Origin: Candidatus Woesebacteria bacterium | GTDB taxonomy: Bacteria; Patescibacteriota; Microgenomatia; UBA8517 | DNA length: 64,000 nt | NCBI GenBank assembly: GCA_013374835.1 | Contig: CP055307.1 | Coordinates: 215,315-279,314, forward strand | Reading direction: 5' to 3' | In this document: positions 40,437-44,956 of the stretch, piece after piece | Layout: each line of letters begins with the position of its first letter | Numbering within the stretch: the first letter of the stretch is position 1 | The notes under the pieces: model-generated | The model's input: only the letters and a program-made list of their open reading frames with translations | Told to the model about the DNA's origin: nothing | The model's database searches: none | Program-made: the position numbers and the translations under genes

Positions 40437-40511
40437 TTCTCCAATAAAAAACGGGGCTTGGGTTTTCCTACTCTGGTGAGTAAAAAAACCTAAGCCCCGA
40501 TAAATTCGTCA
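40437..40511 (-). terminator. Intrinsic terminator hairpin plus T-tract, preceded by conserved 16-mer GCCTGACGAATTTATC
   Basis: Minus strand GCCTGACGAATTTATC-GGGGCTTAGGTTTTTTT...AAAACCCAAGCCCC-GTTTTTTATTGG. Lies downstream of the nuclease gene and upstream of the portal gene. Confidence 0.55.
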
Positions 40512-40569
40512 GGCGGATTACTTTGCTGCCTTCATTCTAACAAAGTCTCAAAGAAAAATGCAAGTGGTT

Positions 40570-41571
40570 TTAAATTGATTCACACGCTACGCCGTCTCCA
40601 ACTCCTACTGAGTCCAGTTTCATTGGATCGTTGGTGGCTGTAAATCCGCAGCAATCAAAGAATGCTTGCGCTTCGGCGTGGGAGGAGAAATCCGAGCAAT
40701 CTCGGTCTGGGCTGGTGCAGGAGTATTTGCACGCTCCGCCTCCCGATGTGGTCGTTTGTGTCGGTGCGCTTGTTGGTTGCGTAACAGGTTTTGCAGTGGG
40801 TTTTGTGGTAGCAACGGGACAGGCGTCATCTGCCCATAGTCCTTTTTTGCCTTGCTCTGCGTCCTTCTGCGCCTGCTTATATTCTGCTTGATATTTATAG
40901 GGGAGATTATAGGTGTATTCGTAGGCATAACCTGTGGCGATCATCAGTTTGCCAAAATCGACAGTGCCGTTGTCTATCCACACATACCTCAAAAGGCGAT
41001 TGTATTTGTCTCTCTCACCCTGAGTTGGATCGGCTTCCAGCTGCACTGTTTTATCCGCAAGATACTCTTTTGCCTTAGCTGAGGCTTCTTGTCCGAAGCA
41101 TTCTACTGGTTTTCTGGGGTCGACTGTCTCTGGTGTGTTAATTCCTATAATCCTGATTCTCTCTGTTTTGCCGTCAAACGAAACATCGATTGTGTCGCCG
41201 TCAATGACCCTGGTCATTTTAGCGGTCTGCATGTTTGTGGGAGTGGTCAATTCCTGGGTAGGAGATGGCTCTTTGGTTGTCTCAACGGCTGTTGTTTGCG
41301 CTTCTGGGGTAGGGGTGGCTTGTGTCGTTTGCTCTTGGTTTCGCTCTGGCTTGCTGGGGGAGGTCATGGCTGAAATCCACACTCCACCAAAGGTTAAAGT
41401 AAATAGAGCAATTATCGCCAAGAAGGAATACTTTAATTTCGAGCTGCCGACCTTTTTATAAACGAACCAGCCAGCTCCCAGTCCTATGGCAATCGGAAGA
41501 AATGCTAGGGATAAAATCCCTATCAGAGGAATTATAATCAGTTTTCGCTTACCTTCGAGTAATCCTTTCAT
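40570..41571 (-). CDS. Membrane-anchored secreted thermonuclease (SNase-like) with C-terminal Excalibur Ca-binding domain
   Basis: Two N-terminal TM helices and a Thr/Pro-rich linker. SNase core IDGDTIDV...ERIRIIGINTPE...KYNRLLRYVW. C-terminal DSVGVGDGVACE matches the Excalibur DxDxDGxxCE motif. Confidence 0.75.
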   Translation of the reverse strand: MKGLLEGKRKLIIIPLIGILSLAFLPIAIGLGAGWFVYKKVGSSKLKYSFLAIIALFTLTFGGVWISAMTSPSKPERNQEQTTQATPTPEAQTTAVETTKEPSPTQELTTPTNMQTAKMTRVIDGDTIDVSFDGKTERIRIIGINTPETVDPRKPVECFGQEASAKAKEYLADKTVQLEADPTQGERDKYNRLLRYVWIDNGTVDFGKLMIATGYAYEYTYNLPYKYQAEYKQAQKDAEQGKKGLWADDACPVATTKPTAKPVTQPTSAPTQTTTSGGGACKYSCTSPDRDCSDFSSHAEAQAFFDCCGFTATNDPMKLDSVGVGDGVACESI

Positions 41572-41671
41572 TCATTTTCCTGATTAATACCTGAATTATA
41601 GGCTTCTTTAAATTAATTTGCAACTGATCTAGCCCTTTGCTTAGGGCTAGACCTTTATGTTCGATCTGGTC

Positions 41672-42418
41672 TTAGTTTTTTGCCAGGTCGTAGGTGTCAT
41701 TGTCGTAAACAACTATCTGCCCGCCACTGGTGATGGTTACATTGATCAGTGCCGTAGTTTTGCCGTTTTTATCTTTCGTTCTCCAGGCGTAAAAGTAATT
41801 CACCAGCTTACCTGGAGTGATTCCGTCTCCGCCGTCCTTCATGCCCTGATACTCTTTGGTCATACTGGTGATATCGACGCCGAAGATGTTTTTATGGTCA
41901 GCAATGAATTTCTCGGCGACTTCGCCCGCTTCTTCTGCACTGTAGCGGGGAGTATAGTCATACTCTGGCGCTTCTTCAAACCAGTGTGTGCCGTCTGCGT
42001 TTTCTCCCCATCTGCGTTCCGCTTCGGTTTTCTCAATGATGTAGTTAGTTTCTGGGTCGATGGTAAAAGCCCATCTATCTGCCTCGTAATACTCATAGTT
42101 ACCCCTTCCGCAGGTGAATTTTACCTCAACCTCTGGCATGCCCAGGAACTCTTTCACATTGGCTACCGCCTGCTCTCTTTCAGTTGCTGGTCTGGATTTT
42201 AAGAGGCAGTATTGCTCCTTTGCGTCTTTATACTCCTGAGAGTCTTTGTCTTCGATACTTGCTAGGTTCGCCTCTGTTTGGGCTATAAGCTGGGCTTGCG
42301 TATCCTCAGCTGCAACTGCAACGGCGCTCTCTTTTGCTTTGCTCGCTTGGTAGTTATAAGCAAACGCTCCGAGGGCAAGAGCTACAGTCGCTGCCATCAA
42401 TATCTGCTTTCCTTTCAT
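41672..42418 (-). CDS. Secreted protein, paralogue A of a two-member family
   Basis: Signal peptide. Shares YYEADRWAFTIDPETNYIIEK and C-terminal INVTITSGGQIVVYDND with ORF 43738..44523 (YYSEDYLFTVDVQTNKVLEV ... IQVGLTQGGQLIGYTN). Confidence 0.5.
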   Translation of the reverse strand: MKGKQILMAATVALALGAFAYNYQASKAKESAVAVAAEDTQAQLIAQTEANLASIEDKDSQEYKDAKEQYCLLKSRPATEREQAVANVKEFLGMPEVEVKFTCGRGNYEYYEADRWAFTIDPETNYIIEKTEAERRWGENADGTHWFEEAPEYDYTPRYSAEEAGEVAEKFIADHKNIFGVDITSMTKEYQGMKDGGDGITPGKLVNYFYAWRTKDKNGKTTALINVTITSGGQIVVYDNDTYDLAKN

Positions 42419-42420
42419 TC

Positions 42421-42987: not shown

Positions 42988-43123
42988 AAGTCTTATAGCT
43001 TAATTGTACCCTAATTATCATCAAATCTAGTAGGAAGTCAAGTTTTTTCCTACTTTTCCAACTTTTCCCCTAAAACAAGCCAGCCCCCCTTGCGGGGGAC
43101 TGACTCTGACCTTCCGCTCCGCT

Positions 43124-43741
43124 TTAGGGTGCGTGGTTACCAGGACAGTAAGCGCTCCACTGGCTTGCCTCGTGACAGATTTCGGTCTCATCAAAACCGA
43201 TCTGGGTTGAGGGGGATTCACAAGTATCGTCGTCAAGCCAGGTGTTCATGATCTGATAACGATTCTCTCCTGTTGGGAATGAAACCCAATAGTTGTAAAA
43301 GTTATTCTGGTTGATCTCGAACGAGTAGCTACTTCCTCCATTGTAGGTAACCGTATAAGGCGCTCTGGTTGTTGTGGCGTAGTTGCTGGGTATGAAAGCA
43401 TACCAGTAACTCCACTGGGCGATGTTGCCCATGTTCCATCTGGCGTAGTTACTCAGAGAGCAACCTGAGTAAGTCTTCCACATACTGCGGGTCACCTGGT
43501 TATAAGGTGAGTTGTGAGCGCATTGCCTATTCTCACACCAATCGTAGTCAGCTGGCGCATTACACCAACCCATACTGCCGTGTTCCCACCAGTATTCGCT
43601 CGGACCATATCTATCGAAGTAATTACCACCAGTACAGATGATAGTTCTTTCGTTGTACGCCAAAGCACCCCTTGTACCTGCCAGCCCAACGATGGCTACC
43701 AATGCTAAAGCGAAGAGAATTTTTGATAAAGTTTTTATCAT
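43124..43741 (-). CDS. Secreted Cys- and aromatic-rich hypothetical protein
   Basis: Signal peptide MIKTLSKILFALALVAIVGLAGTRGALA. 10 Cys and many Trp/Tyr. No known motif. Confidence 0.45.
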   Translation of the reverse strand: MIKTLSKILFALALVAIVGLAGTRGALAYNERTIICTGGNYFDRYGPSEYWWEHGSMGWCNAPADYDWCENRQCAHNSPYNQVTRSMWKTYSGCSLSNYARWNMGNIAQWSYWYAFIPSNYATTTRAPYTVTYNGGSSYSFEINQNNFYNYWVSFPTGENRYQIMNTWLDDDTCESPSTQIGFDETEICHEASQWSAYCPGNHAP

Positions 43742-44523
43742 AGACCCTCAAAAAAGCCTGCATTGGTATAGCCGATCAGTTGTCCGCCCTGGGTCAAGCC
43801 CACTTGAATAAATGGTCTTTGACCCTCTGAGGTTTTTTCTCCCGTCCAGCGGAAGAAGTATGTCCCTACCTTCTGACCTCTTTCGAGCTGCAGGGAGTCC
43901 AGATCCACTCCCAAGTTTTGAGCGTCGACAAGTTTCCTTGCCATCGCTTCCAATTGAGCCTGGTTATAGCGTGGAGTCATGTCCTCAAAGGCTGCAGGTT
44001 CACCAACTTCTTTCGGTCTCATGTAGACCTCAAGCACTTTGTTGGTTTGGACATCAACTGTGAATAGGTAATCCTCAGAGTAGTAGGTTTCGGCTGCGAG
44101 CTTTTTGAATCCTTGAACTGCTCCTGGTCTGCCTCCATACACGGGGTGCTGGACAGGCTGTCCTTCTACAGTGTAGAGGAATCTGTCGTTCCATGCGGTG
44201 ATGGCTTCGACAGTTTTTGCTCTGTCTTCAGCGGGTCGTGCGGTAAGCTCCAGTATTTCGTTGTATACTTCCTTCTCGACTCGGCGGACTTCCTCAGCGG
44301 TCTTCCCAGCGAATACTCTCTCACCATACTTGTTGATGGTAAATTCGCCGTTTTTCATCGCCTCAGCGGTTACATCCTTGAGTTTCTGCTCTAAAGCCTC
44401 AATCCTAGCTTGCTTTGGGTCTTGCTGCGCTCCGACGGGCTGTGTCCTTGAGAGACCATACCCGACAAGCACGGCAACGGCAAGTAGGGGAAGGATTACG
44501 AACAATCTTTTCGTATACCTCAT
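43738..44523 (-). CDS. Secreted protein, paralogue B
   Basis: Signal peptide. Paralogous to ORF 41672..42418 (see above). Confidence 0.5.
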   Translation of the reverse strand: MRYTKRLFVILPLLAVAVLVGYGLSRTQPVGAQQDPKQARIEALEQKLKDVTAEAMKNGEFTINKYGERVFAGKTAEEVRRVEKEVYNEILELTARPAEDRAKTVEAITAWNDRFLYTVEGQPVQHPVYGGRPGAVQGFKKLAAETYYSEDYLFTVDVQTNKVLEVYMRPKEVGEPAAFEDMTPRYNQAQLEAMARKLVDAQNLGVDLDSLQLERGQKVGTYFFRWTGEKTSEGQRPFIQVGLTQGGQLIGYTNAGFFEGL

Positions 44524-44749
44524 AGCTTTTTTATTTTTTCACCTCCTTTCTAGTTTTAAATAAATAATCACCCAATATGATGGGTATTGGGCTTCGAATT
44601 AGGGGAGAGTTTGAACAAGGGGATAATGCTATTTTAGGAGGCGATGATAGTGGGAGTTTTCCTACTTTTCCTACCATTCTGACATTAAGTATTAACCCTT
44701 TTTTCTTAAATGTCAAGCGCAGTAATTTTCCGATTTGACGCCCTTTTTC

Positions 44750-44956
44750 TTATACCTGGTTCGTGCTGTTTATAACCAGTCCGCTCAATATCGCCCATCC
44801 TGTTTTTACTATAATCACTGAGGTTGCCAAAGCGAGGATTGCCAGCCCTGCGTCAGTGTTTATTCCCAGCGCCACAATGGCTAGAAAACCCCAGAAGATT
44901 GCCAGCCAGAGCCAGTAGCCTGCTATTTCACCAATAAATTGCAATGCTTTTTTCAT
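44750..44956 (-). CDS. Small membrane protein (two TM helices)
   Basis: 68 aa: IAGYWLWLAIFWGFLAIVALGI and AILALATSVIIVKTGWAIL. Confidence 0.35.
   Translation of the reverse strand: MKKALQFIGEIAGYWLWLAIFWGFLAIVALGINTDAGLAILALATSVIIVKTGWAILSGLVINSTNQV

Follow-up and report, generated by a model that had tools for sequence, protein, structure and literature searches.

A modular accessory-gene slot between the terminase and portal genes of a Patescibacteria prophage encodes exported proteins that may serve lysogenic conversion

Introduction

The moron, reportedly defined by Hendrix and colleagues, is exemplified in the lambdoid phages by lambda bor and lom and by the morons of HK97 and HK022. 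Among prophage products, Sda1/Spd of Streptococcus pyogenes are secreted DNases. Extracytoplasmic function (ECF) sigma/anti-sigma pairs sense wall-active agents or polysaccharide by an ectodomain, as in sigmaV-RsiV with lysozyme and SigI-RsgI with carbohydrate-binding modules (CBMs). Antiviral-system hotspots have been described in P2-like phages and P4 satellites (PMC9122126), the CJIE1 prophage of Campylobacter carries the DNase dns (PMC3995785), and Patescibacteria phages have been reported to carry surface-modifying cargo of the lectin type (PMC12911398). Here we describe an island of six genes for exported proteins at positions 40437-44956 of a 64,000-nucleotide stretch (the window) of Candidatus Woesebacteria contig CP055307.1 (assembly GCA_013374835.1, positions 215,315 to 279,314), which lies between the genes for the terminase large subunit (TerL) and the portal protein of a prophage.

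Much of bacterial diversity belongs to the Patescibacteria (Candidate Phyla Radiation), cell-dependent organisms with minimal genomes that can hardly be cultivated; to our knowledge, the contributions of their prophages are known only from broad gene-category surveys. We propose, with a probability of about 60%, that the TerL-portal interval is a cargo slot of a temperate phage family infecting Patescibacteria (Microgenomates group), and that its cassettes are expressed as lysogenic conversion.

A slot of variable content between TerL and portal

The slot is bordered upstream by TerL (45341-46915, minus strand), which matches PHROG 675 terminase large subunit (2.2e-95) and Pfam GpA_ATPase (8e-20), and downstream by the portal gene (38559-40430, minus strand). 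The portal protein matches Pfam SU10_portal at 2.5e-6 (26.7 bits, below the 30-bit gathering threshold), phrog_156 at 1e-6 and phrog_1216 at 3.4e-5, with a stronger match to phrog_332 'head-tail adaptor' (6.5e-13). Its gene is located directly upstream of the head genes in all relatives, and both capsid and portal are of the SU10 type. The gap holds eight open reading frames (ORFs): the six co-oriented minus-strand genes reported by an earlier sequence-only reading, all of which are present as claimed, plus s70 and s57. The gene s70 (45145-45357, minus strand) encodes a small DUF2292 protein (Pfam 1e-4), overlaps the end of TerL and is found in nearly all relatives; it is a backbone gene, not cargo. 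The 57-amino-acid (aa) product of s57 (44972-45145, minus strand) is very basic (15 K/R versus 4 E) and has no family match, and its homologues occur only in L001, L019, L022 and L066, the variants that lack the sigma factor described below.

About 60 related loci (L numbers) were collected by TerL and portal searches, comprising IMG/VR contigs and metagenome-assembled genomes (MAGs). The MAGs are labelled Daviesbacteria, Gottesmanbacteria, Shapirobacteria, Woesebacteria, Microgenomates and others. The records of L019, L020, L025, L026, L031, L039, L043 and L044 are titled uncultured Pseudomonadales, Gammaproteobacteria or Bdellovibrionales, titles that are probably wrong because the closest relatives are all Patescibacteria MAGs.

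TerL and portal are separated by 54-75 bp in L016-L018, the most distant relatives (42% TerL identity), by 3.4-5.2 kb in nine loci and by 16.4-28.4 kb in seven contigs. A gap that varies from 54 bp to 28 kb among related phages confirms a slot for accessory genes. The flanking TerL and portal are 70-90% conserved while the content between them varies, as is typical of a hotspot, and genes present in one phage are absent from the same place in close relatives, as is typical of morons.

Among relatives with 71-83% TerL identity, the genes of most follow one core order: s70, an ECF sigma gene, a gene for an anti-sigma-like protein, homologues of the island genes g261, g205 and g188, a gene for an anchored protein of 186-193 aa, and portal. 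Because this block and a PepSY paralogue sit here in most of these relatives, g261-g205-g188 is a family-conserved module rather than a recent insertion. The ECF sigma factor has 167 aa (Sigma70_r2 4e-17, r4_2 2e-8), and its gene overlaps that of an anti-sigma-like protein of about 300 aa with a single transmembrane (TM) segment, the ectodomain of which is the tandem PepSY-like domain of g248 and g261. The pair is located at 11899-13307 of L023 and is also found in L060-L063, L002, L006, L007, L009-L011 and L028. An ECF-type motif, AAAATGTTACTTTT-N-CCGTTTAC (TGTTAC-N16-CGTT), lies upstream of the sigma gene only. The 64-kb window has no sigma factor homologous to this ECF sigma.

A second type of slot is found in L001, L019 and L022, which carry s57, g68, a full-length MltG (Pfam 1e-67), a g248 with signal peptide and the nuclease gene, and lack g261-g205-g188; the L023-type loci display the reverse pattern. 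Indeed, g333 (the nuclease gene), g68, s57 and the signal-peptide g248 are restricted to L001, L019, L022 and L066, and the window combines both gene sets.

The long slots contain, in addition, opposite-strand blocks next to portal: GajA (8e-63) and GajB (3e-50), type I restriction-modification (R-M) genes (REase_I, E=0; MTase_I, 1e-131), and a type IIG methyltransferase with an SNF2/PLD helicase. L006/L057 (IMGVR_UViG_3300002702_000191) and L002/L046 (IMGVR_UViG_3300038436_000160) have Gabija, type I R-M and type IIG blocks between the envelope cassette and portal, each ending with a small gene for an excisionase/MerR-type helix-turn-helix (HTH) protein. PADLOC detected no complete known defence system in the window itself.

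Predicted transcription units of the island

As read here, the window island is put together, mosaic-like, from at least three cassettes, the promoters and hairpins of which are conserved. Compared to L066, the closest relative (about 81% nucleotide identity), in which the order is g68-g248-g261-g205-g188-nuclease plus two extra genes, homology breaks at the cassette borders, namely at 44717, 42455/42439, 41622/41571 and 40576/40570. The island would be transcribed as at least three units, in which promoter P261 drives g261-g205 up to terminator T1, P188 drives g188-g248 up to T2, and Pnuc drives g333, with g68 standing apart. Across the relatives, the cassette has two divergent allele types, one with 58-70% and the other with 33-41% identity to the window g261 and g205, and g188 shares 42-58% across both types, while TerL stays at 72-76%.

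The promoter-like hexamers of the sequence-only reading are present. Three such sites are intergenic and conserved in relatives; one of them, P188, reads TTGACT-16-GATAAT. The sigma70-like P261 (TTGACA-17-AATACT, 44716-44688, minus strand) keeps its -35 TTGACA, between diverging flanks, in all nine relatives examined. It is followed by a tandem pair of 9-nt repeats (GGTAGGAAAAGTAGGAAAAC, 44656-44675, minus strand) at about +6 to +25 of the g261 leader; at their position, 12 relatives have AGTAAGAAWAGTAAGA and then a GTAAG-N6-CTTAC hairpin. Downstream of the repeats the leader is pyrimidine-rich, and it ends in a terminator- or attenuator-like hairpin with a T-run (44560-44592, minus strand) just before the strong ribosome-binding site (RBS) AGAAAGGAGGTG; with -8.9 kcal/mol and z -1.6, this hairpin is weak when taken alone. 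In an alignment of 13 sequences, pairing in both the small 5' hairpin and the 3' hairpin is kept via compensatory changes. Folded as a single sequence, the leader is not better than shuffles (z -0.8), so both hairpins are supported by the alignment alone.

The intrinsic terminator T1 after g205 (43072-43106, minus strand) has a 13-bp G+C stem followed by UUGUUUU (-30.9 kcal/mol, z -4.6), and an equivalent hairpin is found in relatives. It adjoins three tandem 9-nt repeats (GGAAAAGTTGGAAAAGTAGGAAAAAAC, 43045-43071, minus strand), which in turn abut the -35 of P188 (43041-43014, minus strand), around which lies the inverted repeat GTAGGAA/TTCCTAC. At this position the relatives have three TAAGAMAA repeats and TGGACT-17-GATATAT, and L066 has the same motif as the window. 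After g248, T2 is an 11-bp hairpin with a weak U tail (41626-41653, minus strand; -19.5 kcal/mol, z -4.0), which moves together with g248 in L066, L001, L019 and L022. Pnuc (TTGCAA-17-TATAAT, 41623-41595, minus strand) has the -10 GCCTATAAT, kept in L001, L019 and L022 and replaced by TGGTATAAT in L066.

The six island proteins

Signal peptides or TM anchors had been assigned to five of the six products by the sequence-only reading. The signals are there, but an N-terminal hydrophobic segment can be read from the translations of all six. A Kyte-Doolittle scan at a threshold of 1.6 flags five and misses g248, the segment of which (ILMAATVALALGAFAY) is weaker and is modelled by AlphaFold2 only as a long helix of low confidence. 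Against the closest relative, the ratio of nonsynonymous to synonymous substitution rates (dN/dS) of the island genes is 0.10-0.13, compared to 0.10 for TerL, 0.06 for portal and 0.045 for the capsid protein; given these values, the island ORFs are real genes under purifying selection. Searches of Pfam, PHROG and NCBIfam yielded nothing usable for g68, g261, g188 and g248.

The genes g261 (43738-44523, minus strand; 261 aa) and g248 (41672-42418, minus strand; 248 aa) both encode exported tandem PepSY-like proteins, the former with a signal-peptide-like N-terminus, and a BLASTP match at 8e-13 bears out the earlier claim that the island holds two paralogous secreted proteins. Homologues of g261 (dN/dS 0.10) occur in most relatives at 58-87% identity, and g248 is homologous to the ectodomain of the relatives' anti-sigma factor. 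The model of g248 is YpeB-like, its best structural match being YpeB (PDB 5boi), the regulator of a lytic transglycosylase, at a sequence identity of 13%. Neither protein matches the Pfam PepSY families. The PepSY-like family has very few members: of 1.84 billion cluster representatives, 169 match at E<=1e-3. In the BFVD viral fold library it gave one weak match, to an uncharacterised protein, so no characterised viral structure there resembles the family; PDB sequence profiles gave nothing for the PepSY and g188 families.

The product of g205 (43124-43741, minus strand; 205 aa) is a predicted secreted, Cys/Trp-rich β-sandwich with a CBM fold, and is a candidate for the CBM/Golvesin_C (PF25275) group. 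It has a signal-peptide-like N-terminus, and its ALA|YNER site is kept across 26 homologues. That of g188 (42421-42987, minus strand; 188 aa) has a single membrane anchor, with a TM segment at residue 8, and resembles the N-terminal LysM-like domain of YceG/MltG. The g188 family aligns with the YceG proteins of the islands in hhalign with a probability of 93.5% (E 2.3e-7, 65 columns). It covers only template positions 41-105 of 326, which belong to the N-terminal domain; g188 ends at 188 aa, with neither the catalytic C-terminal domain of YceG/MltG (PF02618) nor any Pfam YceG match.

The smallest product, g68 (44750-44956, minus strand; 68 aa), has two TM segments, at residues 10 and 31. Its gene lacks a dedicated promoter and is probably transcribed by read-through from TerL-s70-s57. 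It has no match in Pfam, PHROG or PADLOC, and no holin family of Pfam or PHROG is matched. Homologues are present in L019, L022, L001 and L066; the gene lies upstream of YceG in L001 and L022 and is not beside any hydrolase gene in the window.

The largest product, g333 (40570-41571, minus strand; 333 aa), consists of two TM segments, a Thr/Pro linker, a staphylococcal-nuclease (SNase) domain and a Cys-rich Excalibur-like tail. The earlier name of thermonuclease-Excalibur protein thus holds for the nuclease domain (Pfam 7e-22; PF00565, 78.3 bits against a cut-off of 21; NCBIfam NucI, 5e-33), but the C-terminus is degenerate: its DxDxDGxxCE motif reads LDSVGVGDGVACE and no Pfam match to Excalibur (PF05901) is found at E<=0.01, although many homologues carry PF05901. 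The motifs DGDT and R-x4-G-I-N-T-P-E (GINTPE) are present, and the N-for-D variant is common to 23 of the 49 family members with a detectable motif. The family has more than 5,788 homologues, with close ones in assemblies labelled as Patescibacteria (Daviesbacteria, Shapirobacteria). In PADLOC, g333 matches the candidate model SNc+LTD at 1e-50, a match at the level of the domain. The genes of homologues with 64% and 54% identity are located away from phage structural genes, next to a serine recombinase and within a Fic/PIN/NUDIX region. Such gene contexts support the assignment of g333 as a cargo-type gene, of a family that occurs outside phage structural contexts.

The portal leader and a second cargo slot

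Between g333 and portal lies a leader (40446-40562, minus strand) made up of a TTGCAT-18-TAGAAT promoter, a 22-nt box (GCCTGACGAATTTATCGGGGCT, 40493-40514, minus strand), a hairpin and a U-run. The hairpin (40452-40499) has 21 bp (-33.9 kcal/mol, z -6.9), is followed by U6 and ends about 15 nt before the portal ATG. In 17 relatives the leader is conserved whatever the cargo, with 89.6% of cells paired and four pairs showing compensatory change; none of 500 shuffles reaches the observed percentage paired, the double-change cell count or the covariation score, and five of 500 reach the compensatory-pair count. The intrinsic terminator with which the island had been said to end is therefore a genuine strong hairpin before portal, but belongs to the conserved portal leader and is not the island's own. 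We thus read the portal leader as a backbone element, not as cargo.

The exact GCCTGACGAATTTATCGGGGCT box occurs twice in the window, at 40493-40514 and at 37492-37513. The second copy belongs to a similar leader of the next head-region gene, d133 (37013-37414, minus strand), in which TTGACA-18-TACAAT and the box are followed by a long hairpin and T-run ending just before the d133 RBS. A search of Rfam (evalue mode, 36000-48000) retrieved no family for either leader. The repeated promoter-box-hairpin layout suggests that late units may be opened by terminator read-through.

A second cargo slot (37425-38548, minus strand) lies between portal and the d133 leader. It holds d129 (38078-38467, minus strand), which encodes an exported protein with a signal peptide, and d141 (minus strand; true start probably M34 at 37898), which encodes an exported protein with a TM anchor. 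Both have strong sigma70-like promoters (11/12 or 9/12 matches), and their homologues are found only in L066. In L060-L063 the second slot carries metabolic cargo on the opposite strand, with genes for methyltransferases, hydrolases, dehydrogenases, a dCMP deaminase and an RrnaAD-type rRNA methyltransferase. Insertions appear to be tolerated in both slots because each sits directly upstream of a self-sufficient promoter-leader unit.

Repeats shared by the cargo promoters

The 9-mer GTAGGAAAA occurs in five copies in 64 kb versus 0.76 expected, a number reached in none of 100 shuffles, and four of the five copies are in the TerL-portal interval. Within the window, the tandem form GGAAAAnnnGGAAAA is found only at 43045-43071 and 44656-44675. 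9-mers of the GTAGGAAAA type are common to the cargo promoters of both slots and the portal-leader hairpin. At the same positions, GTAGGAAAA-type repeats are found in the window and L066 and GTAAGAA-type repeats in the sigma-bearing relatives, a concerted difference that argues for a dedicated trans-acting factor.

The sequence-only reading had described these upstream sequences as phased A-tracts. The repeats that it quoted do exist, but their unit is 9 nt, so they are not helically phased; this period and the GTAAGAA-type homologous repeats in relatives rule out a phased A-tract bend. A reading of the GGAAAA repeats as ECF-type -35 boxes was also rejected, as TGTTAC-N16-CGTT is found only upstream of the relatives' sigma gene and nowhere relevant in the window, which moreover lacks a homologue of that sigma factor. 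They are unlikely to be operators of the main phage repressor, given that the tandem form is found nowhere else in 64 kb. A search for a late regulator among the early genes retrieved only a Ros/MucR-type zinc-finger protein (51103-52056) and a sigma70-region-4-like HTH protein (54523-54885), neither of which is linked to the motifs.

The 11-mer AGTAGGAAAAC is present in exact form in the g261 leader (44656-44666) and in the 3' arm of the portal-leader hairpin (40462-40472), with near-copies upstream of the -35 at P188 (43044-43054) and at the d129 promoter (38539-38548). The latter two promoters also have TTGACTTCCT in common.

The prophage and its borders

The prophage extends over about 40.5 kb (~14.45-54.94 kb of the window) and sits in the host gene comM/yifB (Mg-chelatase-like), the N-terminal part of which is at 13499-14446 and the C-terminal part at 54938-55597, with abutting profile coordinates. 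Host genes lie on both sides, and a tyrosine integrase gene (14609-15679) adjoins the left prophage end. From ~54.9 kb down to 16.3 kb, every gene is on the minus strand. Among cultured phages there is no near relative: none of 50,697 phage records was matched by 38000-47500 in megablast, and TerL identity to cultured phages is only 24-29%.

A tRNA-Cys (GCA) gene (57784-57856, minus strand) lies about 2.9 kb beyond the right prophage end and is not the attachment site. In the early region, 52053-52778 encodes an exported protein of 241 aa with a signal peptide and no Pfam match, in which a stretch reading ...ITAIESSFGKN... is reminiscent of lytic transglycosylases. At the end of the late region, 16352-17941 holds the likely lysis cassette: a C39-like hydrolase of 370 aa, encoded at 16829-17941, with an N-terminal Peptidase_C39_2-like domain and a coiled coil, a 73-aa protein with two TM segments and an 89-aa protein with a C-terminal TM segment, the two small genes (16352-16832) being holin-like.

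Discussion

The slot appears to lie at a transcription-unit boundary, where the TerS-TerL-s70 unit would end and portal would restart with its own promoter and leader. Owing to this location, cassettes with their own promoters and terminators could enter, be exchanged or change their order while essential late genes stay active. What the sequences show is the identity and fold of the genes, their modular arrangement in a hotspot, the conservation of regulatory elements and the action of purifying selection. The cassettes would most likely be expressed from their sigma70-type promoters independently of virion production, and all products would end up in the membrane or at the cell surface. They include a lectin-like β-sandwich, a pair of YpeB-like tandem PepSY-like proteins, a membrane-tethered Ca-type DNase and an anchor with the peptidoglycan-facing N-domain of MltG. 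From fold and context, we propose that the PepSY, CBM and MltG-N proteins may bind wall glycan or wall hydrolases and thereby alter wall turnover or access through the wall, and that the nuclease may degrade DNA at the cell surface, either to scavenge nucleotides for a host unable to synthesise them or to keep out incoming DNA. When the cassettes are expressed, what the proteins bind and how the host benefits are inferred in this proposal.

The sequence-only reading had seen here a lysogenic-conversion moron module inserted between TerL and portal. What stands of it is the modular accessory slot with its own promoters and exported products, each cassette having a predicted promoter and, in two cases, a terminator (P261/T1, P188/T2, Pnuc). 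What needs correction is that one block is family-wide rather than a recent insertion, that the last terminator belongs to the backbone and that the GC content is not distinct. Several observations weigh against lysogenic conversion. The g261-g205-g188 block is conserved across most of the phage family, unlike a classical sporadic moron; the GC content of the island (0.44-0.51) shows no contrast with that of the flanks (0.45-0.51), as a moron of foreign composition would; and the island genes are all co-oriented with the late genes. Promoter-like sites in the region are at chance level (15 found, 13.6 expected). Moreover, a conserved hairpin with a T-run lies directly before the g261 RBS, and since the g261 leader shares its layout of promoter, leader, terminator and RBS with the portal and d133 units, g261-g205 could switch on with the late genes by read-through. 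Finally, no family or defence-database match gives a specific activity to g261, g205, g188, g248 or g68.

Expression late in infection would suit a helper of lysis or egress, in which g68 forms a holin-like pore, the PepSY proteins restrain a wall hydrolase (host MltG or a phage enzyme) until lysis, as YpeB does for SleB, g205 and g188 dock on the wall, and the nuclease clears DNA from the lysate. The island does lie inside the late region and on the same strand, and the terminator-like hairpin of the g261 leader recalls the late leaders. A full-length, membrane-anchored YceG/MltG (Pfam 1e-67 to 1e-73) occupies the same slot in L001, L022 and L013; its gene is just downstream of the g68 homologue and beside the PepSY gene in L001 and L022, whereas no g68 homologue is detectable in L013. 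The protein that g248 matches best in structure also regulates a lytic transglycosylase. However, no catalytic MltG is encoded in the window, and every cassette comes with a conserved sigma70-like promoter and a terminator. The phages can also do without the slot content (54-75 bp in L016-L018), and the nuclease family is found in non-phage contexts. In addition, a separate hydrolase with two small TM proteins closes the late operon (16352-17941), for which reason the island was rejected as the lysis cassette itself; a helper role is in our judgement unlikely.

Rather improbable, in our view, is superinfection exclusion or defence at the level of the envelope, with secreted PepSY proteins neutralising the wall-degrading enzymes of incoming phages or other attackers and the surface DNase destroying DNA before entry. 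In favour of it, the ectodomain that the relatives' anti-sigma factor would use as a sensor is homologous to g248 and g261; proven defence systems occupy the same slot in relatives; the cassette has two very divergent allele types over a TerL that stays at 72-76%; and Campylobacter has prophage DNases known to block transformation (PMC3995785). The nuclease also matches a PADLOC candidate model, but at domain level only, and PADLOC has no match for g261, g205, g188, g248 or g68. Furthermore, dN/dS values of 0.10-0.13 give no sign of an arms race, and the binding partner of the PepSY proteins is only postulated. A related and equally doubtful conjecture would treat the family cassette (ECF sigma, PepSY-ectodomain anti-sigma, secreted PepSY paralogue, CBM-like lectin and MltG-N anchor) as a new kind of phage-borne system for wall surveillance and exclusion, of which the window keeps the effector half only. 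Its PepSY ectodomain might recognise, and the secreted paralogues neutralise, outside wall-degrading enzymes, be it from superinfecting phages or from the episymbiont's partner, and GTAGGAAAA-type operator 9-mers might link cargo expression to the late-gene switch.

That the island genes are conserved virion structural or assembly components is highly improbable: the location between terminase and portal and the presence of g261-g205-g188 in most close relatives would fit, but all six products have signal peptides or membrane anchors and, being exported, cannot be virion parts, the genes are absent from L016-L018 and replaced in L001, L019, L022, L013 and L014, and gene order and copy number vary.

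Cargo expressed as lysogenic conversion remains the reading that we prefer. With TerL and a recognisable portal leader as its borders, the slot offers a way to search metagenomes for the defence systems and envelope factors of these organisms. It has brought to light a small, previously uncharacterised tandem PepSY-like family with links to MltG-type enzymes and an ECF sigma/anti-sigma pair, and the repeated promoter-box-terminator leader before successive late units points to an undescribed read-through switch of late genes. Moreover, a DNase tethered to the cell surface and encoded by a prophage that itself interrupts the competence gene comM would alter both DNA uptake and nucleotide supply in a host unable to make nucleotides.

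Comparison with known systems

In the literature searched, we found no description of this slot, of a PepSY/CBM/MltG-N cassette with an ECF sigma/anti-sigma partner, of the shared operator repeats or of the repeated promoter-box-terminator leaders. Its parts can nevertheless be set beside known systems. Like the lambdoid morons, the cassettes are extra genes among conserved late genes, with their own promoter and terminator, a patchy distribution in relatives and, as is often the case, envelope proteins as products. Unlike in the lambdoid phages, a single slot contains several stacked and reshuffled cassettes, one of its blocks is found throughout the family, base composition does not contrast with that of the flanks, the phage resides in a Patescibacterium and expression in the lysogen is a prediction. 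As in the hotspots of P2-like phages and P4 satellites, a fixed slot between conserved core genes has highly variable content, including Gabija and R-M systems in the relatives; here, however, the slots are the TerL-portal interval and a second one after portal, and the content of the window has no known defence system beyond the domain-level match of the nuclease.

At the level of single components, the PepSY proteins differ from YpeB, the partner of the spore cortex lytic transglycosylase SleB, in that identity is 13%, no Pfam PepSY match is obtained, and neither a SleB homologue nor a sporulation context is found here. The relatives' ECF sigma gene, overlapping that of a single-TM protein with the g248/g261 ectodomain and next to that of a CBM-like protein, is reminiscent of sigmaV-RsiV and SigI-RsgI. 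However, the window lost or never had such a pair, the fold of the ectodomain differs from those of RsiV and RsgI, and the system is phage-borne. The nuclease shares with dns and Sda1/Spd the nature of a non-essential, exported prophage cargo with its own promoter, but g333 is of the SNase family, tethered by two TM helices, has an Excalibur-like tail and belongs to a large family. Altogether, the phenomenon matches three known patterns, namely the lambdoid morons, the antiviral hotspots of P2 and P4 (PMC9122126) and the lectin-type cargo of Patescibacteria phages (PMC12911398).

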